DNA of 50,298 nt from Acidobacteriota bacterium (GTDB lineage: Bacteria; Acidobacteriota; Blastocatellia; RBC074), in NCBI GenBank assembly GCA_022614735.1, contig JAKEHZ010000090.1:1-50298 (forward strand). Direction: 5' to 3'. Below are positions 2,367 through 48,049 of the stretch, piece after piece (positions within the stretch are counted from its first letter, which is position 1; every line of letters starts with the position of its first letter). The notes under the pieces were generated by a model. It saw nothing but the letters and a program-made list of their open reading frames with translations. It searched no databases and was not told the DNA's origin. The position numbers and the translations under genes were made by a program.

Positions 2367-2470
2367 GAAAGCAAAGAGAGAAAACGAAACAGGCAAAATA
2401 AGCGAAAAAGCCGAGCAATTTTCGCTTGTTTCGCTTATTTCGCCTGTTTCGTTTTCTCTCTTTGCCTTTC
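2367..2470. repeat. Intergenic palindrome IR1 (about 40-bp arms, A/G-rich 5' arm, T/C-rich 3' arm)
   Basis: The left arm gaaagcaaagagagaaaacgaaacaggcaaaataagcgaaa pairs with the right arm tttcgcttatttcgcctgtttcgttttctctctttgcctttc (one indel, one mismatch). It starts 8 nt after the hutH stop. The loop carries aaagccgagc. Confidence 0.9.
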
Positions 2471-2483
2471 CATATATGAGCAT

Positions 2484-4142
2484 ATGAATCAACCAAGAAC
2501 AGTCAAAGCGCCGCGCGGAAATCAGATCAGTTGCAAAGGCTGGGTCCAGGAAGCCGCGCTCAGGATGCTGATGAACAACCTGGACCCGGATGTCGCCGAA
2601 AATCCGGATGAGTTGATTGTCTACGGCGGCACAGGTAAAGCAGCTCGCAACTGGCAAGCATTTGAAGCCATCGTCCGATCACTGCAATCACTCGAGGATG
2701 ACGAGACGCTGCTCGTGCAATCGGGCAAGCCTGTCGGCATCTTCCGAACGCACGAGGACGCGCCTCGCGTGTTGATTGCCAATTCAAACCTCGTCGGCCA
2801 ATGGTCGAATTGGAACGAATTTCATCGTCTCGAAAGAATGGGATTGACGATGTACGGACAGATGACGGCCGGTTCGTGGATTTACATCGGCAGCCAGGGC
2901 ATCGTTCAAGGCACGTTCGAGACCTTCGCGGCTGTCGGCAACAAACATTTCGGCGGATCGCTTGCGGGAAAGTTGGTCGTGTCGGGCGGAATGGGTGGGA
3001 TGGGCGGCGCGCAACCGCTGGCGGCGACGATGAATGGGGCCTGTTTTCTGGGCATCGACGTCGATCTAGCCCGGATCGAGAAAAGACTCAAGACCGGATA
3101 TTGCGATGAGATCAGCGTTGACCTCGATGATGCCCTCAACAAGATTTCTGAGGCGCGCAAACATGGCCGGGCGATTTCTGTAGGCCTGGTAGGCAACTGC
3201 GCAGATGTGCTTCCCGAGCTGGTGCGTCGCGGTGTTGTTCCCGATGTATTGACTGATCAGACGAGCGCACATGACGCATTTTATGGTTACGTGCCGAATG
3301 GAATGAACCTGGATGAGGCCTTAAAGCTCCGGCGTGATAATCCCGATGAATATGTCAAATACTCTATGGAGTCAATGGCGAAGCATGTGCGCGCAATGCT
3401 CGAATTGAAGCGTATGGGCGCGGTGACTTTCGATTACGGCAATAACATCCGCGCGCAGGCCAAGCAGATGGGTATCGAAGATGCGTTCGAGATTCCAGGT
3501 TTCGTGCCGGAATACATCAGGCCGCTCTTTTGCGAAGGGCGCGGCCCGTTCCGCTGGGTAGCTTTGTCTGGCAACCCTGAAGACATTCGCAAGACAGATG
3601 ATCTGGCGCAGGAGCTCTTTCCGGATGATCCTGTGCTCGAACGATGGCTGAAACTGGCGCAGGAACGCATCAAATTTCAAGGCCTGCCCGCGCGCATCTG
3701 TTGGTTGGGATACGGCGACCGCGCGGAATTTGGAGTAGCGATGAATGAGCTGGTGAAGAAGGGCGAGATTGAAGCGCCAATTGTGATTGGCCGCGACCAT
3801 CTCGACAGCGGTTCGGTCGCTTCGCCCTATCGCGAAACCGAAGGGATGCTTGATGGCTCAGATGCAATCGCCGATTGGCCCTTGTTGAACGCTCTGGTCA
3901 ACACAGCGGCTGGGGCTTCGTGGGTTTCGATCCACAATGGCGGTGGTGTGGGCATTGGCTATTCCCTGCACGCAGGGATGGTTGTGGTTGCAGATGGGAC
4001 TGATGGAGCTTCACGAAGACTGCAGCGTGTGCTAACGACCGATCCGGGAATGGGAATTGTCCGTCACGTTGACGCGGGCTACGAGAAAGCGATTGTTGAG
4101 GCGCGAGAGCACGGCGTGCGCCTACCCTCACATTTGCGCTGA
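2484..4142 (+). CDS. hutU: Urocanate hydratase
   Basis: 552 aa, the typical urocanase length. The characteristic N-terminus is [50 protein letters not shown]. It lies between hutH and hutG. Confidence 0.93.
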
Positions 4143-4174
4143 GGCATTGAAGCGAGGTAGATTCTATCACTGTT

Positions 4175-5119
4175 ATGCAACAACAAATGATAGATGATCC
4201 ATTCTGGCCTCGCGCAAGCGCCTGGCTTGCTGGGACCCATGCAGAGAACACCCTCGGCAGAGTGGCCGTTCTCGGCGCGCCCCTCCGACTCGGTTCAATC
4301 ACGCCCGGAAGATGTGATTTAGCCCCGCCGGCAGTGCGCGCGATCCTGCGAAAGTTCAGCTGTTACGACATCGAAGCAGAGACTGATCTGCATTTTCTCG
4401 ACGCACGCGATCTGGGCGATTTACCGCTGGCCGATACGAAACTCGAAGAAGCTTTTGAGCCGCTGAGCGATGCTATCCGAAGTGCGCTCTATGAAGCTGA
4501 TGCCGTGATCATAATCGGCGGCGATAATGGGGTAACACGTCCAGGAGTCCATGGTCTGAATTCTTCCCCTGCATACACCGGTCTAATTACACTGGATGCA
4601 CACTTCGATCTGCGCGACCTTTCAAATGGACTGACGAACGGCAATCCGGTGCGCGCGTTACTGGAGGATGGATTGCCCGGCGAAAACATTGTGCAGATCG
4701 GCATCCAGCCATTTGCCAACTCTCGTGCCTACGCAGAGGTTGCGCACGAGGCCGGGATCACGGTCGTGACGATGGATCAGGTGCGCGCCCACGGTGTCGA
4801 GACACACTTAAATGAAGCGTTTCAATATCTGTCGGAGAAAGTCAGCACGATTTATGTCGATCTTGACATCGATGTGCTTGACCGTATTTTTGCGCCAGCC
4901 GCACCCGGGTCTCGTGCCGGAGGCTTGACACCATGGGAATTGCAGCGCGTGGCATGGATTTGCGGGGTGCATCCGAAGGTCTCAGCAATCGACCTGGTCG
5001 AGGTTGATCCTACCAAAGACATTGCTGATGCAACCGTGCTTGCAACCGGCGCATGTCTGCTCTCTTTCGCCTCCGGAGTGTTGACCAGGCTGACAGCAAC
5101 GTGTGAGAAACTGCAATGA
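4175..5119 (+). CDS. hutG: Formimidoylglutamase (arginase/ureohydrolase family)
   Basis: Ureohydrolase Mn-site motifs are present: [23 protein letters not shown]. Its position inside the hut operon favours formimidoylglutamase over agmatinase. Confidence 0.8.
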
Positions 5120-6363
5120 GCAGAGATCTCGCCGTCCTCAACTGTTCACAACTCATCACGCTCAGCGGTCCCGACCGACCGCGCGCTGGCGCAGAGATGC
5201 GCAAGTTGGCGATCATTTCCGATGGCGCAATGTTGATCGGCGATGGGCGAATTGAGCGGATCGGCACAAGAGCCGAAATCGAACCCCTGCTTGCCGACTA
5301 CGAGGTTGTCGATGCCGGCGGACGTATCGTCCTGCCCGGTTTCATTGATGCACACACGCATCCCGTCTTCGCAGGCAATCGCATTGATGAATTCGAGATG
5401 CGCGCGAGCGGCGCGACTTATCAGGAGATTGCAGCGGCCGGTGGCGGGATCAGATCAACCGTCAAAAGAACTCGCGCGGCAACCGAAGATGAGCTGGTCG
5501 AAACTGGCAAACGTTACAGCCAATGGTTTCTGCGAACAGGCACGACGACAGTCGAAGCAAAATCGGGTTACGGGCTGACCCTCGAAGATGAATTAAAGAT
5601 CCTTCGGACAATTCGACGGCTGAATAATGAAACGCCACTGCATTATGTTCCGACTTTCCTCGGAGCGCACGTTGTGCCTGATGAGTTCAAAGGGAACCGT
5701 TCGGGATACGTTGATTTGATCATCGAAGAGATGCTACCACGTGTGGTAAGTGAGGGTCTGGCTGAGTATTGCGACGTGTTCTGCGATGAGGGAGCATTCA
5801 GTATTGAAGAGTCACGGCGAATATTGGCGGCGGCGAAAAACCTCGGATTGGGTTTGCGCGTACACGCTGATCAACTCACGCTCTGCGGCGGCGCAGACCT
5901 GGCCGCAGAGCTCGGCGCATCGACTGCTGATCACCTCGAACAGACCGGCCCAGCTGAAATCTCAAATCTTAAATCTGCCGGGGTTCAGCCCGTGCTGCTA
6001 CCCGCCTCTGTCCTCATGCTCGGGTCTCAGCGTTATCCGGATGCGCGAGCAATGATCGAAGCCGGCCTCGCCGCAGTCGTCGCTACTGATTTCAATCCAG
6101 GGTCATCGCCTGTGCCTTCCATGTTAATGGTATTGTCGCTGGCTTCGACGCAAATGAAGATGACGCCGGCTGAGGCGCTTACGGCGGCAACGATCAATGC
6201 GGCATACAGTCTTGGCCGCGGCAATGAGATCGGCTCGCTCGAAACGGGTAAACGGGCGGATTTTGTGATTCATGATTGCAGCGATTACCGTGAACTTGCG
6301 TACTTCACAGGCATCGAGCATCCGTTTGAGGTCTATGTCAATGGGCAGAAGGAGATGCTATAG
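5116..6363 (+). CDS. hutI: Imidazolonepropionase
   Basis: 415 aa with [15 protein letters not shown] (HxH) and HADQL motifs. An ATGA overlap with the hutG stop suggests translational coupling. Confidence 0.9.
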
Positions 6364-6493
6364 CCTTAAAGAAATACATTTTTCATTTATCATTTGATAT
6401 TTATCATTTGTCATTGATTAAGCCGTTCTTCTTCAATGACAAATGATAAATATCAAATGATAAATGAAAAATGTATTTCTTTAAGGCTATAGC
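6357..6493. repeat. Intergenic palindrome IR2: perfect 61-bp arms, 15-nt loop
   Basis: 6357-6417 is the exact reverse complement of 6433-6493, checked base by base. The loop is ttaagccgttcttct. The left arm includes the last two codons and the stop of hutI. The right arm ends 6 nt from the stop of the convergent ABC ATPase gene. Confidence 0.97.
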
Positions 6494-6499
6494 ATCTAT

Positions 6500-7219
6500 C
6501 TACAATCTGATTGACATCATCTCTTCACCCTCGAGCATCTTCCCATCCAACATCCCCACTTTACGATCGGCCAGATGAAGGAAACGCGAGTCGTGTGTGA
6601 CCACACAAACTGTCGTGCCATTCGCGTGCAACTGCTTGAGCAGATTCATGACGACCTCACCGCTCGCTGAATCTAAATTTCCCGTTGGCTCATCGGCAAG
6701 CAAGATCGTCGGATGACAAACAATTGCGCGAGCGATGGAGACCATTTGCTGATGCCCGCCGGAAAGCTGGCTCGGGCGATAGCGCACACGGTCCTGGATT
6801 CCGACCTGGCCAAGCACTTCCATCACTCGCTCTTTCCGCTGCGATGGTTTTATCTTCATATAACTCAACGGCTGCTCGACGTTTTCGAAAACCGACATAT
6901 CGCCGATCAGGTTGAAGTTTTGAAAAACGAAGCCAATCTCCTGGTTGCGGATGCGCGCGCGGTCGGAGAGTTTGAGGTCCTTTACCGGCCCTCCACTGAA
7001 GCAATAAAGGCCGGAGGTTGGGGAGTCGAGCAAACCCATGATGGCCAACAATGTTGATTTACCGCATCCTGAGGGGCCAAAGATCACAACGAACTCACCG
7101 CGGTTGATCGTCAGATCTATGCCATTCAACACCGGTGTCACGACACTCCCCTGGCGGAATTCCCTTGTTATATCCTCCATCAAAATCAGCGGCAGAGCTG
7201 AAGTCGAATTCGATGTCAT
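6500..7219 (-). CDS. ABC transporter ATP-binding protein, MacB/LolD-like
   Basis: Walker A GPSGCGKST, signature LSGGHQQ, Walker B ILLADEPT, H-loop VTHD, and a MacB/LolD-like FQNFNLIGDMSVFENV. The ATG at 7219 has an AGGAA Shine-Dalgarno. The ORF-track start at 7297 is a TTG. Confidence 0.88.
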   Translation of the reverse strand: MTSNSTSALPLILMEDITREFRQGSVVTPVLNGIDLTINRGEFVVIFGPSGCGKSTLLAIMGLLDSPTSGLYCFSGGPVKDLKLSDRARIRNQEIGFVFQNFNLIGDMSVFENVEQPLSYMKIKPSQRKERVMEVLGQVGIQDRVRYRPSQLSGGHQQMVSIARAIVCHPTILLADEPTGNLDSASGEVVMNLLKQLHANGTTVCVVTHDSRFLHLADRKVGMLDGKMLEGEEMMSIRL

Positions 7220-7293
7220 CACTTGTTCCTTTTCGATCCTAATTTGAAAGGGGTCTACTCGCACATACGCTCGCTCTGTTAATTTGGTTCGAA

Positions 7294-8313
7294 TCAATAT
7301 TCGCAGAGCCGGCTGTGAACCACATAGCGTTTGAGCTCTTTGAATCCATCACCCTGATGACACTCCGAGCAAATAGGTGCACGCAGCACACGGCGGTGCT
7401 TGAAACTCGAACTGACATGCACCTGGTGACAGCTCAAACAATTGATCGACTCATCGCCGTTGATCACAACATCGCGCACATTTCGCCAGACATGCCGGTC
7501 CCCAGCATTCAAATCTCCATCATCAGCTTTGGAAAAATCAACTTCAAAATCCTGAAATAGATTGTCACCTGCGATGAAGTTGTTGGGATAGGGCAATCCG
7601 GTCGAATTCGATCTCCCCTCGCGCAAATGGCACTGTGCGCAGAGCGAGGTAATGACTTTCGCATCGTTACGGCGCTTTTTTGACAGGAGCACCAATGAGG
7701 TGTCATTGGTATGATCCAGACTTACGACTCCATGGCACGTGTAGCAATCGAGGCTGAAAGATGAAAAAGCCTTGGTCGCGGGGTCAACCGCAGTCGCGTG
7801 GCACCCGGCGCAGCGGCTGGCGAATTTGTCTTTATCCCATGCTGGCTTTTCCGATTCAACCAATTTTTCAATCCTGCCATCATTGTTGAGCACGGCTTGA
7901 ACATTGAGCAGCGCGAATTTTCCATAACCATCTTTCTTGAGGAAGCGCAGGCGATGACGGCTGCCCAGGAAGAAATCGAAACCAGTGGTAAGCTTCTCAA
8001 TCCCAGCCTGTCCTGTGATCATTGATTCCAGTCCCGGCGCACCTACTCGTTCTCTGATGGTCAGCGCATGCGAAGTCTTCTGCCAGGTCGGACCGATGTC
8101 ATTGCGATGACAGAAAAGACATTCGTCGCCTGAAACATAATCCGGACGAGGCTTGCCGAGGTGATTGCTGCCCCAGGCTTTTGGGTCTAATGGTTTTCTT
8201 AGTGTTTGATCCTGAGCGGTTCCCTTAGATCCAAACATCCATAGTGTTGCCGAAAAAACTATCAGCAATTTAAGGGCGGTTATCCAGCCGATGAATTTTA
8301 ACCTCACAAGCAT
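7294..8313 (-). CDS. Hexaheme c-type cytochrome with N-terminal signal/anchor
   Basis: Six CxxCH motifs are present: CLFCH, CAGCH, CYTCH, CAQCH, CLSCH, CSECH. The hydrophobic N-terminus is MLVRLKFIGWITALKLLIVFSATLW. The ATG lies 6 nt after the adaptor gene stop. Confidence 0.85.
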   Translation of the reverse strand: MLVRLKFIGWITALKLLIVFSATLWMFGSKGTAQDQTLRKPLDPKAWGSNHLGKPRPDYVSGDECLFCHRNDIGPTWQKTSHALTIRERVGAPGLESMITGQAGIEKLTTGFDFFLGSRHRLRFLKKDGYGKFALLNVQAVLNNDGRIEKLVESEKPAWDKDKFASRCAGCHATAVDPATKAFSSFSLDCYTCHGVVSLDHTNDTSLVLLSKKRRNDAKVITSLCAQCHLREGRSNSTGLPYPNNFIAGDNLFQDFEVDFSKADDGDLNAGDRHVWRNVRDVVINGDESINCLSCHQVHVSSSFKHRRVLRAPICSECHQGDGFKELKRYVVHSRLCEY

Positions 8314-8319
8314 TCTTCT

Positions 8320-9564
8320 TCACTGCACGATTTCAATCTCGATTCCTTCTTTGAGCTGTTGACCGCTTTCTCTCATGGCGATCTTTTCATCCGCCCGCAA
8401 CCCCTCGATGATTTCTACACGATCACCAAAATGATCACCCAGTTTTACCTCTCGTTCTTTGATCGCCTTTCCCTCAACAACGAAGACTTTATACGATCCA
8501 AACAAATAGGCAGTGGCGTTTTGGGGGATGGTCAGGATTAAGTCAATTTTATCGGATTGAATTATTGCCTTGATGAAAGAGCCGGGTTTGAGCTCGCCAA
8601 TGGGGTTTTCAACAAGGCCTTCGATTTCAAATGTGCGAGTCTTTTCATCCACCACCGGATTGATACGTGAGATGCGCCCCACGAATTCACGACCGGGGAA
8701 AGCTTCAACCGTCAGTTTCACGTTTCGACCAACGCGCACCCAGGGGGACATCTTCTCTGGCACGGATAAACGGAGACGGAGCGGATTAATGTTGACAATG
8801 GTCATCACCGGCGTCTGAACTTTCAGATACTGGCCGACAGTCACAGCTCGAATCCTGATGTGGCCCTCAAAAGGCGCTCGAATTTGTGTATCGCGCAACC
8901 TCTTGTTGGCGAGATTGAGCATCACTTGCGTCTGCTGCATCGAGGCACGCAGATTTTCGACTTGCTGCACTGCCAGATCGTAGGTAGCCTTTGCCGATTT
9001 GTATCTCGCCTCAGCCTCATCATAGGCCTGTCGAGGTATAACGCCGGTCTCGAGCAGACTCTGTGCCCGCCGGTATCTTTGTTCGGCATCTGCCAAATCT
9101 GCGGCAGCCCTCTTGACCTCGGCTGCCTGGCCAATGTCCTTGAGCATACCATCACCATCGCGTAAACCGAGCCGCGCCCGCGCTTGCTCCAGCGCCGCTC
9201 GTTGCTGCTCGACCGTCAGTTCAAACTCGATCGGCGTAATGCGTGCAAGTATCTGGCCCTTGCGGACGCGGTCACCGACGTCAACCAAAACTTCCTCAAC
9301 TCGGCCTTCCGCTTCAGAGCTGACCGTGACCTCGTCGTAAGCAAACAGTGAGCCGACGGCCTCGACCATCCGCTGCTGTTGCTGTTGTTCGACGGAAATG
9401 AGCTTGACCTTTGCTATAGCAGTCGCCGCCCCGGGTTTTTCCAGAGGATTGCCTGCAGCTCCGCGGTTACATGATGAATGAAGTAAGGCAAACACTGCGA
9501 TAACAGGAACAATCAATTGACGAAGGAAAGAGGGGCAGGGATGGTATTTGTGAGAGAAAATCAT
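8320..9564 (-). CDS. Efflux periplasmic adaptor (membrane fusion protein, HlyD/MacA-like), probable lipoprotein
   Basis: The N-terminus has a lipobox-like ALLHSSC. A long alpha-helical hairpin region runs EQQRAALEQARARL...AEQRYRRAQSLLETG...YDEAEARYKSAKATYDLA. It is followed by beta-barrel motifs such as IRAPFEGHI. Confidence 0.85.
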   Translation of the reverse strand: MIFSHKYHPCPSFLRQLIVPVIAVFALLHSSCNRGAAGNPLEKPGAATAIAKVKLISVEQQQQQRMVEAVGSLFAYDEVTVSSEAEGRVEEVLVDVGDRVRKGQILARITPIEFELTVEQQRAALEQARARLGLRDGDGMLKDIGQAAEVKRAAADLADAEQRYRRAQSLLETGVIPRQAYDEAEARYKSAKATYDLAVQQVENLRASMQQTQVMLNLANKRLRDTQIRAPFEGHIRIRAVTVGQYLKVQTPVMTIVNINPLRLRLSVPEKMSPWVRVGRNVKLTVEAFPGREFVGRISRINPVVDEKTRTFEIEGLVENPIGELKPGSFIKAIIQSDKIDLILTIPQNATAYLFGSYKVFVVEGKAIKEREVKLGDHFGDRVEIIEGLRADEKIAMRESGQQLKEGIEIEIVQ

Positions 9565-9656
9565 GGGGCATCAAATTCCTGTGTGCCGAAGTCATATACT
9601 AAAACGAAAGCTGCAACATGGGAACAACAGATTAAACCACGGATTAACTGGAATGC

Positions 9657-9776
9657 GAAGGATCGATTGGGACAAATGAACCGCGGATTTACACGGATGC
9701 GACGGATTTTCACGGATTAAAGCCGCGTCAATCCGTCGCATCCGTGTAAATCCGCGGTTCATTTGCCTCAATCTTC
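9657..9776. repeat. Intergenic palindrome IR3 (36-bp perfect core plus imperfect outer stem)
   Basis: 9672-9707 (caaatgaaccgcggatttacacggatgcgacggatt) is the reverse complement of 9730-9765. The loop is ttcacggattaaagccgcgtca. The right end overlaps the stop codon (9775-9777) of the upstream minus-strand gene. Confidence 0.93.
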
Positions 9777-10731
9777 ACTTCGCGCCAACCCTTGTAAAGA
9801 TAGCGCTACCAAGTCTGACAGACGGCCCACCGTTTTCCGACAACTCTTCCGCAACAGTGAAGGAATGGGCAGCGACGACATTGATGATTCTGCGCACCAG
9901 CAAAGTCTGTCCCTTGACTTTGACCGGATCGATAGTGAAGCGAATGGAAATTGGGCTGGTCCAATCACCCTTGCTGTTCAACACTACACCACTTGCGAGC
10001 TTTTCACTGAAGGTCATCATCTTGCTGGCTTCGTCAAACGTGATCACAGAAGTTTCTTTATACGCTCCCGCATCCGATTTGCCTTCGATTACAACATCGA
10101 CCGATTTGCCGTCCGCGCGCTTCGTGAAAGTTGCGACTCCTTCGCGAGGTGCGGGCCAGAGCGCGCTCTCACGTCCGATGTATTTGAAACTCCATTGGCC
10201 GGCGAAATAATCGATTGACTGCTTCTGCTGCGGCTGTGGCACATCCACTCGCTGGCGTTGCTGCCCCTGTTGCCCCTGTTGCCCCTGTTGCCCTGCGGGT
10301 CGAGATTGAGATTGTGAATCCAGCGGTCCCGTGGTGTCAGTGCTCACACGCTTGAGTTCGATGTCAAAAGTGAAGCTCTGTCCGCCGACATCCACTGCGC
10401 CTTCGCCCTTCATAGCCTCGCCGGCAAGTGTGAAAGAGTATTTGATGTTAAACGATCCCTGCGCTGTCTCGATATCAGCTTTGGCCGTGACTTTGTCGCC
10501 ATCAATCTTGATCTCTTTGAGCTGGATTTCGAGCCCCTGGCGCATGCTGGTTGTTTTGCCCGTATAGTTATCGCCTTCCTTCTTGAAAATCACGGTTGTC
10601 GGGGTTTCGCCTTGTGGCGATTGAACCTTGCCTTCCCAACGCCCCGCCAGTTTGTCCTGTTGAGCTAGACCAGGAAAGGCTAGAAGTTGAATGAGTAAGA
10701 TAGCTCCCAAAACGATAAATGATCGTCGCAT
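9775..10731 (-). CDS. Secreted two-domain protein of unknown function (lipocalin/DUF1579-like beta-rich halves joined by a Q-rich linker)
   Basis: The signal peptide is [25 protein letters not shown]. Two beta-rich halves each open with a G.W motif (LAGRWEGKV and [10 protein letters not shown]). They are separated by [17 protein letters not shown]. Confidence 0.6.
10256..10295. repeat. In-frame 9-bp microsatellite (cccctgttg, 3 perfect units plus partial flanking units) encoding (QQG)n
   Basis: Perfect units lie at 10264-10272, 10273-10281 and 10282-10290. On the minus strand they encode the [11 protein letters not shown] linker of the 9775..10731 protein. Confidence 0.9.
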
Positions 10732-10763
10732 TGACTTTCCTCCGAAGTATTGATGAAGTTGAT

Positions 10764-11729: not shown

Positions 11730-11794
11730 ATTTTAACCAGATCTTCTTCGTGGTAGGGCTACAATTGACCGTCGTGACAGACTGATGAAGGATG

Positions 11795-11911
11795 AGAGGA
11801 TGACGGAACAAACGGAGAAGATGCTAGATGCTAGATGCTAGCTGCTAGGTGAGCGTCCTAGCATCTAGCATCTAGCATCTAGCATCTTCTCCGTTTGTTC
11901 CGTCATCCTCT
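11795..11911. repeat. Intergenic palindrome IR4 with gatgcta heptamer arrays
   Basis: The left arm is agaggatgacggaacaaacggagaag plus (gatgcta)x3. The right arm is its complement with 4 heptamer copies. It ends 3 nt from the stop (11915) of the monooxygenase gene. Confidence 0.93.
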
Positions 11912-11914
11912 GTT

Positions 11915-13258
<1,344 letters not shown>

Positions 13259-13509
13259 CGAAGATCCTCCATTATTTTTTGTGCTTTCAGAACCAGAGAC
13301 GCTGTTCTTCGACCACCAGTTACCAGATTTCTTGCGGAGTGGCGATCAGCGGCACCCGACATTCTAATTCGGAGATTTGAGATTTCACAAGCCCTTCCCT
13401 ACCGGTCGGTCAGTTAACTCAGTTTATCCTTGCAATCCAAACCTCAAGTTGCGATTATCTCGCCTCGCCATCATCAAATCGATACTCTCAAAAAATTGGA
13501 GACAATTGG

Positions 13510-37943: not shown

Positions 37944-37960
37944 TATCTGTGCCTCAACAA

Positions 37961-38063: not shown

Positions 38064-38082
38064 TGACAGAGGAGAGACAACA

Positions 38083-38964: not shown

Positions 38965-38970
38965 AGAACA

Positions 38971-39203
<233 letters not shown>

Positions 39204-39206
39204 GCT

Positions 39207-41234
39207 CTACCTTCCATTCAGGCACTTTTCAATCCACGCAAACTCACGCCGCATCTTGTCGATTTGATAACTCGGTATGGTCAGGCCGTGGCCCTGATCC
39301 GGGTAGATCACAAGCTGTGTAGTCACGCCCAGTCGTTTGAGTGTGCGATAGGTTTCCTGTGACTGACCGACCGGCACACGCTCGTCCTTTTCACCGTGAA
39401 AAATCAAGGTCGGTGTCTTGACCCTGGCCAGGTAAGTCAATGGTGATTGTTCATCGAACGTCTTTCGCGCTTCCCACGGTGTGCCGCCATGCAAGCGCTC
39501 GCGCTGCGCGACGATGTCGGCAGTCCCCCAGTACGAAACGGCATTCGATAACCCGGCGCCATATGCTGCGCATTTGAAACGATTCGTCTGGCCTATCAGC
39601 CATGCGCTCAGATACCCGCCGTAACTCCATCCCGCAACTGCAAGCCTGTTTTCATCAGCAATACCGCGCTTGATCAGATCGTCAATGCCGCTCAGGAGAT
39701 CTTCGTAATCAACTTTTCCGGCGAGTTTCGCGTTTGCCTGCGCGAATTTTGCGCCGTAATTCGCCGAGCCGCGAAAGTTCGGCATAAACACCACGTAACC
39801 ATGTGCCGCATAAATCTGTGGGAACGCGCCCCAGCTTGCATTGAAGCCTCTGACATATGCGCTTTCCGGCCCACCGTGAATGTAGGTCACAAGCGGATAG
39901 CGTTTGCCCGTTTGATAACCTACCGGATAAACCAGCAGACCCTCGATCTCCGTGCCGTCATTCGATCTCCATTTGACCGCTTCGACCTGACCGAGCGCGA
40001 ACTGTTCGATTTGTGGGTTGAGGTGTGTCAGAAAAACCGGGACCATAATGCGCGCGCTCAGGTACGCGACTTCAGTCGAGAGCCGCGGGTTTTCGTGAAC
40101 AAAGGCGATGTTCATGGCGTCGAGGGTCGCAGAGAAGTTCGTCGTCACACCTTCATCACGGGTTAACGCCAGCGGTTTTTGATCGAACACACTCATCGTG
40201 TAGATACGAGAGTTAACGCCTACCCCTGCAAGAATGACGAACCGCAGACTGTCGAAGACCCAGCGGTAACTTGTGATATAACCGTCGAAGTTCTTCCCCA
40301 GCACGCGCGGCTCGCCCCCCGAGCGGGAAACCACGTGAATCCGTAGCGGCCCGACGTTCGGGTCTTCATCGGAGTGGGCGAGGAAGGCGATCCATCGGCC
40401 ATCCGGTGAGAAGCGCGGCTCCGATTCAGCGCCATTGCCCTCGGTTATCTGCCGCGCGCCCGCAGTGTCATAAGGCGCGGCTTTCAAATCCGTTGGGACG
40501 ACAAAGACTTCAGTCGTGTGATTGTCCAGCAGCTTCGGCGTCGCTCGGGCGGTGAAAACGATCTGCGAACTGTCCTGCGACCAGTTGAAAGAGACGATAT
40601 GGCGTGAGCCTCTGGTCAATTGTTTTACCTCATTTGTTTTGACATCGACGATCCAGAGTTGCGCAGAGAGGTGATCCTCATCAACGACCAGCGGCGGCTT
40701 CGTCTTAAGCTTCTCTCGCGGCTCTTCAGCGATGATGGCGATTGACTGGCCATCAGGCGACCACTCGAAACTTCGTATCGCAGATTTGAATGAAGTCAGT
40801 TTCGTTGGCTCTCCCCCTTGAGTGTTGAGGAGAAAGATTTGCCCGCCGGATGATGAAGAGGAAAGAGGGTCTCTGACGTCATTCGCCCTCTCAGATAGAA
40901 AGGCTATACGACGTCCATCCGTGGACCAGCGTGGATGATCATCCCGCCCTGGATGTGAGGTCAAACGGATCGCAGGTTCGCGCGTGTCGTAGGCAAGCCA
41001 GATGTCTGAATTGAACCGGTCGCTTTCGCGATCCCAGGAAGTCACGACGAAAGAGACGCGGCGACCATCGGGCGAAATCTGCGCATCACTTGCCCGGTTG
41101 AGGCCAACGACATCCTCAACAGTCATTGGGCGTTTTGAGAGCGAGAATGCAATGACAACTAACGAACAAGATAAGAGCGAAACAAACAAGAAACGGAAAC
41201 GGATGGTCACAGTTCTCCTCGATCTATCTGCCAT
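39207..41234 (-). CDS. Secreted S9-family serine peptidase (beta-propeller plus alpha/beta-hydrolase)
   Basis: The ATG at 41234 gives MADRSRRTVTIRFRFLFVSLLSCSLVVIAFS. TolB-like blades include SPDGRRVSF, STDGRRIAF and SPDGQSIAI. The catalytic motifs are GWSYGG, GEKDERVP and DQGHGL. Confidence 0.88.
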   Translation of the reverse strand: MADRSRRTVTIRFRFLFVSLLSCSLVVIAFSLSKRPMTVEDVVGLNRASDAQISPDGRRVSFVVTSWDRESDRFNSDIWLAYDTREPAIRLTSHPGRDDHPRWSTDGRRIAFLSERANDVRDPLSSSSSGGQIFLLNTQGGEPTKLTSFKSAIRSFEWSPDGQSIAIIAEEPREKLKTKPPLVVDEDHLSAQLWIVDVKTNEVKQLTRGSRHIVSFNWSQDSSQIVFTARATPKLLDNHTTEVFVVPTDLKAAPYDTAGARQITEGNGAESEPRFSPDGRWIAFLAHSDEDPNVGPLRIHVVSRSGGEPRVLGKNFDGYITSYRWVFDSLRFVILAGVGVNSRIYTMSVFDQKPLALTRDEGVTTNFSATLDAMNIAFVHENPRLSTEVAYLSARIMVPVFLTHLNPQIEQFALGQVEAVKWRSNDGTEIEGLLVYPVGYQTGKRYPLVTYIHGGPESAYVRGFNASWGAFPQIYAAHGYVVFMPNFRGSANYGAKFAQANAKLAGKVDYEDLLSGIDDLIKRGIADENRLAVAGWSYGGYLSAWLIGQTNRFKCAAYGAGLSNAVSYWGTADIVAQRERLHGGTPWEARKTFDEQSPLTYLARVKTPTLIFHGEKDERVPVGQSQETYRTLKRLGVTTQLVIYPDQGHGLTIPSYQIDKMRREFAWIEKCLNGR

Positions 41235-42822
41235 GCAAAATCTTTCCGGATTTGATTCCGTTGTGCATACCACGTTCGATCACGACCTGCCCATTAACGA
41301 TCACGTAATCGATACCAACCGGAAATTGTTTAGGTTCCTGAAATGTCGCGCGGTCAATCACAGTCCTTTCATCGAAGATCACCAAATCCGCCGCCATTCC
41401 CGGTCGCAATAACCCGCGATCCCATAGGTTGAAGGTCTGAGCGGGCAGAGAGGTCATTTTGCGGACCGCTTCTTCCAGGCCGAGCAGTTTTTTCTCGCGA
41501 ACATAGATTCCAAGCACACGCGCGTTGTTGCCAAAGCCACGCGGATGCGGAATGCTCGCGCTGCCCGGCTCGATCACCCCGGCATCGGATGCGACCATCG
41601 TGAATGGCTGCTTGAAAATTCTCTCGACATCTCCTTCAGACATCTTGTGTAACACCATTTGCGCGCCTCCGGCCTGCAGGATGTCGATTATCTGCTCAGC
41701 TTGAGAATTGGCATCGCTCTTGTTCTTCACCATCTTCGTGACCTCAGCGATGTTTTTGCCATTGAAAGTCTGATTGGTCTGATGATTGGCTACAAAAGCG
41801 AAGGCGAAATCCCGAAACCCCTGCGCCTTTGCCTTATCGATCAATTCGCGACGGACACGCTCGCGTGTTGCCGCATCCTGCAATTTTTCTTTCGCTTTCT
41901 CCGAACCGCCTTCAAAAAGCCAGGATGGAAAGAGAATGCCGATACCTGTACTTCCCGCCGGATAAAGGTATTGATCAACTGTTACCTGCAATCCGCGCGC
42001 GCGGGCATCTTCGACCATCTTGATCGTACTCACGCTCGCGCCCCAGCGTTTCTTGCTTGAAATTTTGAAATGTGAGATTTCGACCGGACATCCGGCTTTC
42101 TCGCCGATCTCGATTGATTCTCTGATAGATTTCTCGACGAACTCGCCTTCGTCACGCATATGCGTCGCGTAAACTCCACCGTGTCGCGCCGCAACTTTCG
42201 CAAGTTCGACAATCTCGTCAGTCTTCGCATAGGTGCCGGGGATGTATTCGAGACCGGTCGATAAACCGACGGCTCCGTCGCGCATCGCCTTATCAACCAG
42301 CCCAAGCATCTTTTCTAATTCTTCCGGGGTTGGTGGGCGGTCAAAATCACCGTTCATTCCAGCACGACGAACGGTATTGTGGCCCACGAGCGAAGCGATG
42401 TTGATCGAGATACCGGTCTTTTCAAGCTCTGCAAACCATTCGCCTAAATTCGAGGCTGATCCGCCGCAATTACCAGTGACAACCGAAATCACACCCATAC
42501 GCAGGAAGTTTTCTGCAGCAGGAAGTCTGCCGATATTGCTCTCGATGTGCGTGTGAACGTCAATGAAACCGGGCGTGACGATCAGACCTTTTGCGTCAAT
42601 TGTTCTCGCAGCGCGCGTCGTTTCAACCTTGCCGATTTCGACTATGCGTCCGTCTTTGATTGCGATGTCGGCTTCGAACCAGGGATTGCCTGTGCCGTCG
42701 ACGACGTGGCCCCGAGAGATGATCAGATCGAAATCGGTAGCCGACGATACCTCGTGATGATTAACGGAAGACAGCATCGGGACTGTGATCAGAGTGAAGA
42801 GAAGGAGAATGATTCTTTGCAT
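41224..42822 (-). CDS. Secreted N-acyl-D-amino-acid deacylase (D-aminoacylase) family amidohydrolase
   Basis: The signal peptide is MQRIILLLFTLITVPMLSS. Motifs are DLIISRGHVVDGTGNPWFEADIAIKDGRIVEIG and GFIDVHTHIES, with a C-terminal beta-sandwich DYVIVNGQVV. Its stop overlaps the start of the downstream S9 gene by 11 nt. Confidence 0.82.
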   Translation of the reverse strand: MQRIILLLFTLITVPMLSSVNHHEVSSATDFDLIISRGHVVDGTGNPWFEADIAIKDGRIVEIGKVETTRAARTIDAKGLIVTPGFIDVHTHIESNIGRLPAAENFLRMGVISVVTGNCGGSASNLGEWFAELEKTGISINIASLVGHNTVRRAGMNGDFDRPPTPEELEKMLGLVDKAMRDGAVGLSTGLEYIPGTYAKTDEIVELAKVAARHGGVYATHMRDEGEFVEKSIRESIEIGEKAGCPVEISHFKISSKKRWGASVSTIKMVEDARARGLQVTVDQYLYPAGSTGIGILFPSWLFEGGSEKAKEKLQDAATRERVRRELIDKAKAQGFRDFAFAFVANHQTNQTFNGKNIAEVTKMVKNKSDANSQAEQIIDILQAGGAQMVLHKMSEGDVERIFKQPFTMVASDAGVIEPGSASIPHPRGFGNNARVLGIYVREKKLLGLEEAVRKMTSLPAQTFNLWDRGLLRPGMAADLVIFDERTVIDRATFQEPKQFPVGIDYVIVNGQVVIERGMHNGIKSGKILHGR

Positions 42823-42854
42823 GCTATCCTGATTTGGGAGAATTGTTTATTTTG

Positions 42855-42944
42855 AACCGCCAAGGCGCCAAGCGCGCCAAGCAAAGATACTATAAAGCTC
42901 AACAATTTTGATACCATCTTGGCGTCCTTGGCGCCTTGGCGGTT
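42855..42944. repeat. Palindrome IR11 (ccaaggcg words) in a divergent promoter region
   Basis: aaccgccaaggcgccaagcgcgccaag faces cttggcgtccttggcgccttggcggtt. The loop contains ataaagctcaacaa. It lies between the divergent starts at 42822 and 43064. Confidence 0.9.
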
Positions 42945-43063
42945 ATTATTCGAGAAAATGAATACTCACTTGATTGGCTTTTGTTCTAAGGCTATGATGC
43001 CGCGCGATCATGTCGACCCTCTATCGCTCGAACCCAGCAAGTTTTAGTTGCAAGGAGGCATTA

Positions 43064-45157
43064 ATGAAGAGACCAACGGCTTCTCTCATATTTGCTCTGT
43101 TCATATTCAGTCTCGCTTTCGCCGCCCCTGCCGAAAAGCGCATGACGATTGAAGACAGTCTGGCAATCAAGCAGGTCGGCGCTCCCCAACTCTCACCTGA
43201 TGGAAAGTTTATCGCTTACACTATTTCAGAATGGAACAAGAAAGAAAATCGCCGCGTTTCCCATGTCTGGTTTGCCTCCACGGAAGGCGGACGTTCAACG
43301 AGGTTGACCAATGGCGAGAAGGGCGAATCCTCGCCACAATGGTCACCTGACGGCGCGCTCATAGCTTTCCTGGCTGAGCGCGATAAAGGGACGCAGATCT
43401 GGATTATCCCCGTTTACGGAGGTGAGTCCGAAAGACTGACCTCGGAAGAGAATAATATTCAATCATTCCGTTGGTCTCCGGATGGCAAATCCATTGCCTT
43501 CGTGACACGCGATGTGCCGCATGACAAAGCTGAACGTGAGAAGAAGAAGAAGGATAAGTTCGACACGATCGTCGTTGACGCAGACTTCACCTATTCGCAT
43601 CTGTGGAAAATCAATGTCGAGACGAGAGATAAGAAACGTCTGACAGAAGGCAACTTCACTGCCAGCAACCCGCAATGGTCTCCCGACGGTAAATCGATCA
43701 CTTTCGTCATGTCACGCAGCGGCACGCAGGAAAGCAGCTTTATTGACATCTCTGAAGACCGCAACACTGACATTTACGTAATTCCAGCCGGAGGCGGGAC
43801 GCCGCGCCAGTTGACGACGAACCCGGCGGCTGACACCAATCCCCAATGGTCTCCTGACGGCAAATGGATTGCTTACGTAGCAAATTCTGAGCCGAAATCC
43901 TGGGCGGCCCGCAATGATGTGATGTTGATCTCCCCTGAAGGCGGCACACCACGCAATCTGACCAAAGACTTCTTCGAATCGGCCAGCTCCTCCATGAATT
44001 GGTCGCCCGATAGCAAGACCATATTCTTCACGAGCGGCGTTGGGTTTTACACACACATCTTCAAAATTTCCAGCGATGGCGGTAAAGTGACTCAGATTAC
44101 ACGCGAGCATCGCAATTATGGTCCATTCGATATCTCCGGCTATTCGCCGAAACTGACGCCCGGTACTCCTCCATTCAATTCCAACGAACCCGCTTACACC
44201 CCTAATTGGAAGATTGCATACGCTGTCACCGACAGTCTCACGCCTGAGGATATATGGATTGCACCATTGAACAAAATTGAAGAAGCCAAAAAGGTCACCT
44301 GGGTCAATCCGGAGATCCGAGATTTTACGCTCGCCGAAACAAATGTACTCAAGTGGAAAGGACCGGATAATCTCGATATCGAGGGGCTGCTCGTCAAACC
44401 GCTCGGATACGAAGAAGGTAAACGCTATCCCCTGATCCTGCAGATTCACGGCGGGCCTTATGCCCGCTTCTCCGACACATTCAACACCCGCGCCCAGATC
44501 TGGGCAGCGAATGGTTATGCTGTATTGATGCCCAATCCACGCGGATCGACGGGATATGGTCACAAGTTCACGATTGCAAACATCGGTGATTGGGGCGGCA
44601 AGGATTTTAAAGACATCATGGCCGGGGTTGATGTCCTGATAGCTAAAGGTATTGCTGACCCTGAAAAGCTTGTCGTGATGGGCGGAAGCTATGGAGGGTT
44701 TATGACTTTCTGGACCATCACACAGACCGATCGCTTCAAAGCCGCTATCGGTCACGCGGGCATCAGCGACTGGTATAGTTTCCACGGTCAGAGCGATGTA
44801 CCCGGATTGATGGAGTATGGTTTTGCCGGACAGCCCTGGACTTCGACCGAAAACTATCGCAAGTATTCACCGATGACTTACGTCGATCGTGTAAAAACGC
44901 CAATAATGATTACACATGGCGAACGTGATCTGCGTGTTCCCATTGCACAGGCCGAACAGTATTACCGGGCACTCAAGAAACGCAGTGTAGAAGTCATCTT
45001 CCTGCGCTTTCCGCGTGAGGGACATGGCATTCAGGAACCGAACCACATAATCGATCTCGTCACACGCCAGCTTGAATGGTTCGACTCACATCTCGGCATA
45101 AAACGTACCAAGCCTGTCGAGACAAAATCAGTAGCACAAACGGAAAACAAAAAGTGA
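43064..45157 (+). CDS. Secreted S9-family serine peptidase, paralog of 39207..41234
   Basis: The ATG at 43064 follows AAGGAGG. The signal peptide is MKRPTASLIFALFIFSLAFAAPA. Blades include SPDGKFIAY, SPDGALIAF, SPDGKSIAF and SPDGKWIAY. The catalytic motifs are GGSYGG, GERDLRVP and REGHGI. Confidence 0.9.
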   Translation: MKRPTASLIFALFIFSLAFAAPAEKRMTIEDSLAIKQVGAPQLSPDGKFIAYTISEWNKKENRRVSHVWFASTEGGRSTRLTNGEKGESSPQWSPDGALIAFLAERDKGTQIWIIPVYGGESERLTSEENNIQSFRWSPDGKSIAFVTRDVPHDKAEREKKKKDKFDTIVVDADFTYSHLWKINVETRDKKRLTEGNFTASNPQWSPDGKSITFVMSRSGTQESSFIDISEDRNTDIYVIPAGGGTPRQLTTNPAADTNPQWSPDGKWIAYVANSEPKSWAARNDVMLISPEGGTPRNLTKDFFESASSSMNWSPDSKTIFFTSGVGFYTHIFKISSDGGKVTQITREHRNYGPFDISGYSPKLTPGTPPFNSNEPAYTPNWKIAYAVTDSLTPEDIWIAPLNKIEEAKKVTWVNPEIRDFTLAETNVLKWKGPDNLDIEGLLVKPLGYEEGKRYPLILQIHGGPYARFSDTFNTRAQIWAANGYAVLMPNPRGSTGYGHKFTIANIGDWGGKDFKDIMAGVDVLIAKGIADPEKLVVMGGSYGGFMTFWTITQTDRFKAAIGHAGISDWYSFHGQSDVPGLMEYGFAGQPWTSTENYRKYSPMTYVDRVKTPIMITHGERDLRVPIAQAEQYYRALKKRSVEVIFLRFPREGHGIQEPNHIIDLVTRQLEWFDSHLGIKRTKPVETKSVAQTENKK

Positions 45158-45161
45158 AAGG

Positions 45162-45211
45162 GGAATAGAAGAACCATGGATTTGGTCTGCGGCTGATCCG
45201 TGGTTAATTCC
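45162..45211. repeat. Short hairpin related to the IR3 family
   Basis: ggaat..gaaccatgga...tccgtggtt aattcc shares the gaacc(a/g)(c/t)gga / tccg(c/t)ggttc word with IR3 and the 15943 element. It starts 4 nt after the S9 peptidase stop. Confidence 0.6.
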
Positions 45212-45225
45212 TTTTACAACCGGCT

Positions 45226-46807: not shown

Positions 46808-46914
46808 ACTTCGATGCTCTCTACAAACTAAGTGACAGACGGTTCAATTGTGAACCTTCGGTGAGCAGGCTTGACGCATCAAACAGGATGTCAAACCAAT
46901 CCGCCGAAGGCTAA

Positions 46915-46978
46915 CAAACAAGCGAAAATGGGCCCCTTTCGCTTGTTTCGTCTATTTTCGCATGTTTCGTATTCTCTC
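46915..46978. repeat. Truncated copy of the IR1 family (small hairpin plus right arm only)
   Basis: aaacaagcgaaa-atgggcccc-tttcgcttgttt is followed by cgtctattttcgcatgtttcgtattctctc. The IR1 right arm is tttcgcttgtttcgcttatttcgcctgtttcgttttctctc. It ends 5 nt from the stop at 46984. Confidence 0.8.
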
Positions 46979-46983
46979 ACTGT

Positions 46984-47961
46984 TCAGGTCTGGCCCTTGT
47001 CCAAGCTTTTGGTGAGCGTATCGGATGCTGTTTGTCGTGGCACGCTGATCACTGCCTGCACACGCTGGCCTGTGCGCGAGACTTTGAGGTTGTTGAGCAT
47101 CACCATCACCGCCGGATCGTCGGCCTTCCTGAGCTTCGCAAACAAAAGCGCGGCGTGCGCCAGATCGACAATAGCTCGCGCCTCCTGCTCATTGCTCGTA
47201 AAGCCTACGACATTGAGCTGAGCAACCTTATCAACTTCTAAAATCATGCTCAAAGAAGTCAGATGTTGTAATGGCCCCAAAGCTCGGCTCACGCTCACAG
47301 CTTCGAGAATTGCAAGCGCGGCATTGTCAACTTCCTTTATCCCCGAAGGGATGATGATCCGATAGTTGGCAAGAGTGCCGTCGGAATTGATGGAGCCGGC
47401 GACTCCTACTTTCAATTTCCCATCGGGAATGACGAGTTTCCCTGCCTTTTTTGCGTCGTAGAGCTGTTGAATCTGATCCTTGATCGGCGCAGTATTGATC
47501 TTGCCGAATCCGCCGGGATAAACATCATTCTTGGGCGGCGGGGTTGGCGTTGGCGCCGGCGCCGTTTTTATCGACACTTCTGCTTTGGCTAAATCTTCAA
47601 CCTCACGCTTTCTAGCCTCTTCCCTCTCGCGTTCAAGTCGATCCCGCTCACGCTTGAGACGGGCTGCTTCCAAACGAGCGAGCCGCTTCTCCTCTTTCTT
47701 GACCTCATCAATAGAAGCCATCTTGTCTGGTGGGCGGAATCCGAGGTATCCGGGTGGATAGGTCAACCGCTTGTTGAAACTGATGAGAATCGTCCGGTCA
47801 TACTCTTCATCAACAAATTCTACTCCTCTCAGTCCCATTGCGAGGCTTATAAGCGACGCAGCACGATAGACGATATAGATTCCCGCATGAAGCGTCAGAG
47901 AAAATAGAAGCGCAAGCATCAGCTTGCCGCTACGTTTTGGATATTCGACCAAAGTAATCAT
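46984..47961 (-). CDS. Membrane-anchored TonB-like protein with an extra C-terminal domain
   Basis: There is an N-terminal TM helix. A charged coiled segment is KKEEKRLARLEAARLKRERDRLEREREEARKRE and the proline linker is PAPTPTPPP. A TonB-C-like stretch is GTLANYRIIIPSGIKEVDNAALAILEAV. Confidence 0.55.
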   Translation of the reverse strand: MITLVEYPKRSGKLMLALLFSLTLHAGIYIVYRAASLISLAMGLRGVEFVDEEYDRTILISFNKRLTYPPGYLGFRPPDKMASIDEVKKEEKRLARLEAARLKRERDRLEREREEARKREVEDLAKAEVSIKTAPAPTPTPPPKNDVYPGGFGKINTAPIKDQIQQLYDAKKAGKLVIPDGKLKVGVAGSINSDGTLANYRIIIPSGIKEVDNAALAILEAVSVSRALGPLQHLTSLSMILEVDKVAQLNVVGFTSNEQEARAIVDLAHAALLFAKLRKADDPAVMVMLNNLKVSRTGQRVQAVISVPRQTASDTLTKSLDKGQT

Positions 47962-48007
47962 CTTTTTACCCGCCAGCCTACAGCTCTGACCAAAGGGTCT
48001 TACAAAC

Positions 48008-48049
48008 CTAACTACCGACTACCAACTACTGACTACCGACTACCGACTC
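48008..48049. repeat. Tandem heptamer array (c-y-r-acta x6) without a complementary arm
   Basis: The units are ctaacta ccgacta ccaacta ctgacta ccgacta ccgactc. I found no cggtagt-type partner within the intergenic region. Confidence 0.85.

Follow-up and report, generated by a model that had tools for sequence, protein, structure and literature searches.

Palindromic repeats between bacterial genes have been described in several forms. Repetitive extragenic palindromic (REP) sequences, together with bacterial interspersed mosaic elements (BIMEs) and REPINs, include REP doublets mobilised by RAYT tyrosine transposases (PMC3116915, PMC3733652). Transcribed REPs have been credited with mRNA stabilisation and attenuation, and REPIN hairpins are ~100 nt long (PMC3116915, PMC3733652); RAYT-like 'TIRYT' transposases have been noted in Acidobacteria (PMC3733652). 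Inverted heptamer arrays, GGGAATC in Xanthomonas and GGGGA(C/T)T in Nostoc, occur near stop codons and form quadruplexes in vitro (PMC4692102), and bacteria in general have been summarised as having an excess of heptanucleotide repeats (PMC4679880). Here we describe long, near-perfect inverted repeats, most of them just past stop codons, in a contig of a soil bacterium of the class Blastocatellia, phylum Acidobacteriota (GenBank JAKEHZ010000090.1, assembly GCA_022614735.1). The whole 50,298-nt stretch is called the window, and elements are named by their first position in it.

Other intercistronic repeats, such as MIRU in mycobacteria, ERIC/IRU in enterobacteria, the malE-malF REP and the Rhodobacter puf stem-loops, act as stabilisers that give upstream and downstream segments of an mRNA different stabilities. 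Acidobacteriota are among the most abundant soil bacteria, and to our knowledge almost nothing is known of their transcript ends or of how expression is balanced within their operons. Our literature search returned no account of such hairpins, nor of MIRU-, ERIC- or REP-type intercistronic repeats, in this phylum, the nearest reports being those on the Xanthomonas and Nostoc heptamers and on REP elements. We give roughly even chances to the interpretation that the elements are dispersed hairpin repeats, co-transcribed with the upstream gene, that would act as intercistronic or 3'-end RNA hairpins.

Long near-perfect hairpins past stop codons

Two independent scans, a repeat finder and a seed-and-extend scan, agreed on 11 inverted repeats in the window, with 25–90 paired bases, stems of 26–91 bp and loops of 3–65 nt. 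About 0.2 would be expected by chance; twenty first-order Markov shuffles yielded 0–1 each, with at most 17 pairs. Folded as RNA, the elements have minimum free energies (MFE) of −48 to −104 kcal/mol (z = −7.3 to −22.8), and none of 200 shuffles did as well as the native elements. An earlier note on this sequence had measured four of the stems. Its 61-bp perfect stem at 6357–6493 proved to be 65/65 perfect at 6353–6497, and its 83-bp stem at 19830–20019 extends to 19829–20020, with 90 of 91 positions paired and a perfect run of 84; its figures of ~65 bp with 2 mismatches for 32347–32497 and 26 bp perfect for 24168–24222 stand (63/65 and 26/26 paired).

Tandem Repeats Finder detected 7-, 8- and 9-nt words in the arms of eight elements (2368, 6353, 11795, 19829, 21128, 22504, 38971 and 42855), where the word arrays form the whole arm or its inner part. 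At least eight unrelated words are used, A/T-rich, C-rich or G-rich, and G-tract words occur only in 38971 and 22504. That arms of tandem words are common to all elements is thus true of these eight, but not of 24168 and 32347, which lack repetition, nor of the outer parts of 6353, 11795, 19829 and 22504.

Ten of the 11 elements lie −11 to 39 nt from the facing stop codon. The proximity to stop codons claimed earlier therefore holds with one exception, 42855–42944, which sits between divergent genes with no stop nearby. Hairpins occupy 4 of the 5 convergent gaps of the window versus 1 of the 6 divergent gaps. Seven long inverted repeats belong to co-directional gene pairs, one of them (21128) being coding; five of the six scorable elements in co-directional gaps are nearer the upstream stop (1–39 nt) than the next start (42–100 nt), the exception being 2368, 9 nt past the hutH stop and 15 nt before the hutU start. 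These distances come from the manually annotated window, used instead of the wider survey described below, where stop-versus-start proximity is unreliable because longest-open-reading-frame starts and trimming put a start beside the hairpin. Many elements stand inside operons, as at hutH–hutU and at the pair of iron alcohol dehydrogenase (Fe-ADH) and BamB-like genes, whose stop and start overlap (ATGA) and which overlap without spacer in many relatives, so that 'nearly every operon boundary', as the earlier note put it, does not describe where they are.

No U-tract follows the stem at any of the 11 elements, and the stem bases are not U-rich. Hairpin-plus-U motifs are no commoner in the window than chance predicts (23 versus 22.4, 17 versus 21.4 and 15 versus 14.1), in agreement with the view that these are not canonical intrinsic terminators. 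Of the hallmarks of such terminators, a stop-proximal stem-loop is present (10 of 11), but a U-tract directly after the stem (~5 or more U in 8 nt) and a compact stem (~5–20 bp with a 3–8-nt loop) are absent. The room left before the next start is indeed scant: 15 nt after 2368, 0–42 nt after 24168 and 48 nt after 19829 with its satellite hairpin. Since several elements thus leave no space for a promoter, full termination is unlikely, and a processing, stabilising or attenuating role would be the more reasonable reading of the sequence.

The two arms mirror each other beyond what their words dictate. Where a left-arm word strays from its consensus, the right arm has the exact complement at 88 of 113 positions, and at 29 of 31 in 6353, 11795, 19829, 22504 and 38971; arrays expanded independently would rarely agree in this way. 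Selection or an active generating mechanism had been proposed, and the mirrored variants, together with the differing words found in relatives, fit either pairing selection or a copying process. In 38971 the copy numbers of the arms differ (5.4 versus 8.4), indicating that slippage goes on after a palindrome has formed.

Sequence is also shared between elements. Elements 9655 and 15946 are 95% identical over 45 nt, non-repetitive sequence included, and 2368 and 46908 are 88% identical over 42 nt. The segment ACGGAACAAACGGA is common to 11795 (11795–11818) and 19770 (19770–19804), and CAAAAGG words occur in both 19829 (19887–19923) and 21128 (21129–21196). An apex module, CATTTGTCATTGAT, is present in both 6353 (6377–6417) and 38971 (39021–39070), the outer stems of which differ, and the core of 32347, GTACGGGGAGCGNNAGCGACCTG, recurs at an unrelated position in a long hairpin of another genome. 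Counting pairs with at least four common 10-mers gave 15 of 154 same-locus hairpin pairs versus 138 of 9857 different-locus pairs. The elements thus form dispersed sequence families, a feature absent from the earlier note; this points to copying between loci and not to local selection alone, and the nested, Russian-doll build suggests insertion into, or growth at, the apex or loop of a hairpin.

The architecture extends across the phylum. We surveyed 160 acidobacterial loci, together 1.97 Mb, that surround orthologues of two genes from the window (L-numbers name loci or contigs) and found 131 inverted repeats with at least 20 pairs, 86 with at least 25 and 43 with at least 30, 114 lying outside coding sequence. 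At 2.2 per 10 kb (at least 25 pairs), the density in the window is about five times the average of the surveyed loci. Pooling the 11 window repeats with the 114 non-coding survey repeats (n = 125), we found periodic arms in 29, compared with 1 of 625 random segments; outside the window 24 arms were periodic, 19 of them with a period of 7. The left (5') arm was purine-rich in 74 versus 44 cases (P = 0.007) and had G > C in 72 versus 39 (P = 0.002); its A versus T bias was not significant (66 versus 50). A purine-rich 5' arm, proposed as typical, is thus found in 10 of the 11 window elements but is a statistical tendency in the wider sample. The arms of a palindrome follow in the same order whichever strand is read; the polarity therefore truly belongs to the elements, and its easiest explanation lies with the RNA.

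Gene order at 11–30 kb of the window is the same in L002, L005, L006 and L016, so that orthologous junctions can be compared. Past the stop of the 22635-gene orthologue, the window has a CAAAGGGT-word hairpin, L002 a nested hairpin of TTGATAA/TTGATAG heptamers, L005 and L006 plain hairpins of 13 and 12 bp, respectively, and L016 a 37-bp REP doublet of the GTCCGACAAGCTGCCAGCTTGTCGG family. Past the 24226-gene orthologue, L005 carries an AGTAGAA heptamer hairpin versus the non-repetitive hairpin of the window; past the BamB-like gene, L005 carries a hairpin of CGCCAAGG words, the word type of window element 42855 at another locus. Related genomes thus have other words at the same junctions, which means that the hairpin is recurrent there while its sequence is not conserved.

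The elements, their genes and a coding copy

Apart from the hairpins, the window is ordinary. It holds a hutHUGI operon, an ABC/adaptor efflux set, a peptidase, superoxide dismutase, two phosphofructokinases, pyruvate:ferredoxin oxidoreductase, S9 peptidases, an aquaporin, a TPR protein and a run of PQQ/BamB-like propeller proteins with Fe-ADH, and only ~8% of it is intergenic. No transposase, integrase or Y1 transposase is found among its genes. Orthologues of the M1 peptidase gene (17553–19742) occur in Acidobacteriota, mainly in the class Blastocatellia, the closest (79% amino-acid identity) on a 2.9-Mb contig of a metagenome-assembled genome (MAG); in the collections searched, the nearest relatives reach 79% amino-acid identity among genomes and 72% among metagenomes. 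Six paralogous PQQ_2/BamB-like propeller genes are clustered at 20060–31848 with Fe-ADH, an ankyrin-repeat protein and the M1 peptidase, an order kept in several Blastocatellia MAGs (L002, L005 and L006).

In the hut region, 2368–2468 (stem 42/47, loop 7, MFE −62 kcal/mol, z = −12) has a purine-rich arm of GAAAC(A/G)NGC-type 9-nt words. Its paralogue at 46908–46983 (minus strand), a truncated copy, abuts the stop of gene 46984–47961 and consists of a short hairpin and an unpaired word array. The perfect hairpin 6353–6497 (loop 15, MFE −97.5 kcal/mol, z = −22.8) fills the gap in which hutI and an ABC ATPase gene converge, and covers the final 11 nt of hutI; its inner CATTTNT heptamers end in the apex module.

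Element 9665–9773 (looser limits 9655–9783; stem 42/44, loop 21) has CGGAT-containing words and begins at the stop codon of gene 9775–10731 (minus strand), with the next start ~100 nt on. The truncated member of this family, 15946–16016, lies in the convergent gap after gene 14345–15934, and a short hairpin with CGGAT-family words (gaaccatggattt...atccgtggtt) is found at 45158–45216 (plus strand), 14 nt past the stop of gene 43010–45157. Within the hypothetical gene 9775–10731 itself there is a perfect 9-nt repeat (TGCCCCTGT ×3.6, 10262–10293), the unit of which, a multiple of three, would add an in-frame three-residue repeat.

Hairpin 11795–11911 (stem 54/55, loop 7, MFE −104 kcal/mol, z = −18.8) is located 3 nt past the stop of gene 11915–13258 (minus strand), with four inner AGATGCT words inside an outer stem that carries ACGGAACAAACGGA. 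That sequence also belongs to 19770–19828 (minus strand), a small 13-bp hairpin (GGAACAAACGGAA / TTCCGTTTGTTCC) 48 nt ahead of the M1 peptidase start, followed on the minus strand by a U/C-rich run of TTCCGTTTN 9-mers. Adjoining it is the largest palindrome, 19829–20020, with 91-nt arms and a loop of 10, 39 nt past the stop of gene 20060–21283; its outer 58 bp are non-repetitive and its inner part is made of CAAAAAGGG-type 8–9-mers.

Further along the same run of genes, 22504–22617 (stem 43/44, loop 26) lies 17 nt past the stop of gene 22635- and 72 nt ahead of the Fe-ADH start, with an inner CAAAGGGT ×4 array, a G-quadruplex-type motif. The non-repetitive 24168–24222 (loop 3) is 3 nt past the stop of gene 24226–26553; in one gene call the next gene has its ATG within the last 3 nt of the 3' arm. 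Hairpin 32347–32497 (loop 21), also non-repetitive, exactly fills a convergent gap, with stops at 2 and 0 nt; the genome sharing its core is L096.

The nested element 38971–39183, compound to 39208 (stem 71/74, loop 65), occupies a convergent gap and is identical in contig L162. Its outer part consists of the unequal arrays of GACTGGGG-type octamers noted above, and its inner part of TTTTCCA heptamers around the apex module; gene callers produce a spurious 86-aa open reading frame (ORF) across it. The purine arms at 38971–39013 (GACTGGGG-type octamers) and 22518–22549 (CAAAGGGT ×4) are canonical four-tract G-quadruplex motifs, and a quadruplex there could compete with the hairpin.

Hairpin 42855–42944 (stem 25/27, loop 36, CGCCAAGG words) is the only element without an adjacent stop. 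Its place is the promoter gap between the divergent genes for an amidohydrolase and an S9 peptidase, whose start codons are 32 and 65 nt away. Last, 48011–48048 (minus strand) is a direct-only array of ACTACCG ×5.4 (CGGTAGT on the transcribed strand) with no inverted partner; like 15946, 19770, 45158 and 46908, it is counted with the shorter or truncated relatives.

In an Rfam search of the window, only a tRNA exceeded its gathering score. Several hairpins (19829–20020, 2368–2468, 39000–39154 and others) gave sub-threshold matches to plant and animal microRNA-precursor models (at most 87.6 bits, E = 2e-14); these models pick up any long perfect hairpin, and the matches are generic.

One element breaks the rule, stated earlier, that all are intergenic. 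Hairpin 21128–21268 (minus strand; stem 46/56, loop 29; AAAGGCA / TGCCTTT heptamers) lies inside the 5' coding region of gene 20060–21283, whose frame is open through it from the ATG at 21283 that overlaps the Fe-ADH stop; an independent gene call, made on a short-read assembly, has a protein of 410 aa starting at this ATG. The purine arm translates to MKSDKENQKAKGKRRKAKVNRQK, a K/R-rich n-region, and the pyrimidine arm to LIFDFYLLPFALCLLIFAFCLLPF, a hydrophobic h-region, after which follows the conserved mature start ADSWPQFRGN. A signal peptide is present at the start of this gene in all orthologues, and in the window the sole hydrophobic segment there is the product of the 3' arm. Two relatives whose Fe-ADH is ~66% identical in protein (L094 and L097) carry the same AAAAG(G/T)C words at this site, and the L094 words, read from its sequence, encode a matching peptide (ENQKSK...CLLIFVFCLL...TAQTADSWPQFR). 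The element is, as judged from its sequence, the coding region of a predicted signal peptide of a BamB/PQQ-like protein.

The complements of lysine, arginine and glycine codons are leucine, phenylalanine, proline and alanine codons. A translated hairpin whose purine arm comes first resembles a signal peptide because of this codon complementarity in the genetic code, and the coding copy may illustrate a non-coding repeat turning into a signal peptide. One could go further and propose a so far undescribed, self-propagating hairpin class in Acidobacteriota, in which an active fold-back or template-switch process would build mirror arms of 7–9-nt words and keep them symmetric, and which would settle preferentially at stop codons and hairpin apexes; a purine-first copy behind a start codon would read as charged and then hydrophobic residues and could be co-opted as a signal peptide, as appears to be the case at 21128–21268. 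We regard this full scheme as improbable; if true, it would provide a route to de novo export signals from non-coding repeats.

Repeats in export-signal regions were seen elsewhere too. Downstream of the Fe-ADH orthologue in L085, L088, L095, L096, L102 and L106, which belong to another lineage, complementary heptamer arrays (GTGGGCA ×5 / CCACTGC-type) flank an in-frame twin-arginine motif, SRREFL. The ORF is equally long in all these loci, with 80 codons between the stop ahead of it and the end of the conserved WPQFRG motif; the arrays therefore appear to be translated and stable. A second instance in the window is a 23-nt tandem repeat (1.9 copies, 26438–26481) in the signal-peptide-coding part of gene 24226–26553 (peptide ...LRLISLLSLTLFLIFLSLWG...).

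A possible RNA role and its rivals

In the interpretation to which we gave even chances, an element would lodge just past a stop codon, often within an operon, and be transcribed as part of the mRNA of the upstream gene, where it would fold into one very stable stem of 26–91 bp. This RNA hairpin may block 3'-to-5' exonucleases and would be an obligatory substrate for an RNase III-type enzyme, separating the cistrons; it would at most attenuate transcription and would not terminate it. While transiently unpaired, the G-rich, C-poor 5' arm would be a poor loading site for Rho. The arms would grow through slippage of 7–9-nt words, mainly near the apex, their complementarity being kept either because pairing is selected or because one arm serves as the template for the other, through fold-back or template switching, and copies or modules would spread to other loci, also into the apex of existing hairpins. 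We infer the transcription, the RNA-level effects and the mechanisms of growth and spread, the RNA steps resting on how long double-stranded RNA and REP-type hairpins are known to behave in other bacteria.

Several observations weigh against such a role. With one element coding, the class has no single role. The mirror count (88 of 113) is partly biased, since the repeats collected were only those with good pairing. The window yielded no mobilising enzyme, and the repeats on either side of the RayT-like genes of relatives belong to another REP family, of the classical type. In some relatives the corresponding junction is bare (overlapping genes; two gaps of L006), so that the hairpin is dispensable there. 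Across the 160 loci, hairpins were not clearly depleted in divergent gaps (17 of 141, compared with 22 of 125 for convergent gaps and 65 of 428 for co-directional ones; Fisher P = 0.23–0.41), counts that rest on crude ORF calls. Given these counts and the presence of 42855 in a promoter region, the placement of the elements may mean tolerance, not function.

[quoted passage not shown] The dispersed families, with modules common within and between genomes, speak for it, as do the truncated copies, the varying presence at orthologous junctions, a divergent-gap hairpin rate about two thirds of that of other gaps by the same crude calls, and the occurrence of RayT-type transposases with REP doublets in the same bacterial class. 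However, target-site duplications of at least 3 bp, terminal tags and a transposase are lacking in the window, and the repeat beside the RayT genes of relatives is a different one. Relatives without the long element often have a short plain hairpin instead, which suggests that the site calls for a hairpin; the purine/pyrimidine polarity has no easy explanation at the level of DNA, a palindrome being the same on both strands; and the coding copy has been kept across relatives as divergent as those with ~66% identical Fe-ADH.

We consider it quite unlikely that the elements are bidirectional terminators independent of a U-tract, in which long stems alone would release the transcript, helped by a weak RNA:DNA hybrid in the pyrimidine-rich 3' arm. 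Their place right past stops, including 4 of 5 convergent gaps, would suit such terminators, and so would the absence of canonical ones (motifs at chance level), the purine-rich 5' and pyrimidine-rich 3' arms in both reading directions, and the small hairpin with a U-rich tail after 19829. Yet intra-operon elements stand 0–48 nt from the next start and one stands in a coding region, where efficient termination would silence the genes downstream. The expected A > T bias was not significant, the stem bases are not U-rich, and one element is in a divergent gap.

A role at the DNA level, with cruciforms or G-quadruplexes acting on supercoiling, nucleoid protein binding, replication or recombination, seems very unlikely. 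The stems are perfect and very long, and the quadruplex motifs of 38971 and 22504 are akin to the Nostoc and Xanthomonas repeats, but we saw no tie to replication or recombination features, and both stop-codon proximity and arm polarity are transcript-oriented properties.

Exact copies of window proteins are encoded by the short-read contigs that make up assembly GCA_973348325.1, and they occur in three sequencing runs as well. Over 1915–19945, 19894–32445 and 32400–44386, the window is matched at 100% identity by other contigs of its genome. Short-read and Logan contigs (L001, L162–L168) end in the longest hairpins (19894–19945, 32400–32449, ~21151 and ~22533), that is, inside 19829, 32347, 21128 and 22504; hairpins of this kind break short-read and metagenome assemblies, which matters for the quality of MAGs. 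These breaks are what could be cited for collapsed or chimeric fold-back artefacts of assembly, an exceedingly unlikely explanation given that seven elements (2368, 6353, 9655, 11795, 24168, 38971 and 42855) are internal to independent, 100% identical contigs, that three other sequencing runs contain the same sequences at 100% identity, that contigs from both sides overlap across the centres of 19829 (19894–19945) and 32347 (32400–32445), and that the same architecture is found in megabase-scale contigs and one complete chromosome of other Acidobacteriota (L002 and L016).

If hairpins are the usual 3'-end or intercistronic signal of this phylum, then gene and operon prediction, terminator models and the parts used in synthetic biology would need revision. 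With their mirror-symmetric tandem words, the elements are a natural system in which to study how hairpins undergo slippage and template switching.

Comparison with described hairpin repeats

The elements share with REPs and REPINs that they form intergenic, palindromic, dispersed families, mainly downstream of genes and between convergent genes but also within operons, and a REP doublet stands in L016 at the junction orthologous to window 22504–22617. They differ in that REPs have ~10–15 bp each, whereas the window stems have 26–91 bp, are near-perfect and often have arms of tandem words. The earlier note rightly called them far longer than REPs, and no arm is itself a REP palindrome. Nor do they have the size of a REP, a short imperfect palindrome of 20–40 nt present in many near-identical copies; two paralogous pairs and shared modules do occur within the 50 kb. 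Classical REP doublets were rejected as a description, as self-folding arms occur in none of the 11 window elements versus 22 of the 114 hairpins in other loci. No consistent GTAG or CGTC tag is found within 8 nt of the window element ends.

REPtron-like arrangements of RayT and REP do exist in relatives. A RayT-like Y1 transposase lies beside a REP doublet in L052 (Pfam Y1_Tnp 23.3 bits, cut-off 23), and homologues of this type are common in Blastocatellia. Beside the RayT-like genes of L171, L175 and L178 stand classical REPs (GTCCGACAAGCTGCCAGCTTGTCGG or CCGCAGACC...GGTCTGCGG), and beside that of L052 classical REPs too; none of these genes has tandem-word hairpins as flanks. So far as these relatives show, the window elements are not RayT-associated repeats. 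The arrangement was seen in MAGs of Blastocatellia and of other Acidobacteriota (L052, 124–795, 813–915 and 3121–3224; L171, 1506–1666 and 2425–2506; L175, 455–670 and 1379–1467; also L178).

Two further classes were set aside. A MITE does not fit, since the whole element is one palindrome without a flanking direct repeat of at least 3 bp. Nor does an integron attC site: the genes on either side belong to housekeeping operons whose synteny is conserved in relatives, there is no integrase in the window, and no attC cores (RYYYAAC...GTTRRRY) in the required orientation were seen on reading the sequences, for which no programmatic scan was made.

The heptamer pairs of Xanthomonas and Nostoc are similar in build. 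They too are tandem units of ~7 nt in convergent arrays on opposite strands able to form stem-loops, and they show enrichment both within 50 nt of stop codons and in gaps of co-directional genes; 38971 has in GACTGGGG a word very close to the Nostoc GGGGACT unit. Unlike these repeats, with one G-rich quadruplex word per genome, the acidobacterial hairpins have many unrelated words, non-repetitive outer stems, nested modules and far longer perfect stems. Cyanobacterial STRR heptamers, for their part, are tandem heptamer repeats.

U-less, 'I-shaped' hairpin terminators have been proposed for mycobacteria. With these and with intrinsic terminators our elements have in common a stable hairpin right after the stop that is symmetric in both transcription directions; unlike intrinsic terminators, they have stems 2–5 times too long, loops of up to 65 nt, no U-tract and intra-operon sites without room for a promoter. 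Like MIRU, ERIC/IRU, the malE-malF REP and the puf stem-loops, they lie between cistrons of one operon, at stop and start codons, but they have another sequence, another size and a tandem-word build.

Long DNA palindromes in Escherichia coli are SbcCD targets and unstable. At 100–240 bp in total, with short spacers, the acidobacterial elements have lengths at which palindromes are unstable in E. coli, yet they are stably kept, numerous and phylum-wide. Natural palindromes kept at up to 192 bp with 84 perfect pairs call into question how general the E. coli elimination rule is. Conceptually, the elements are a variant of known bacterial hairpin repeats and not a new kind of system.

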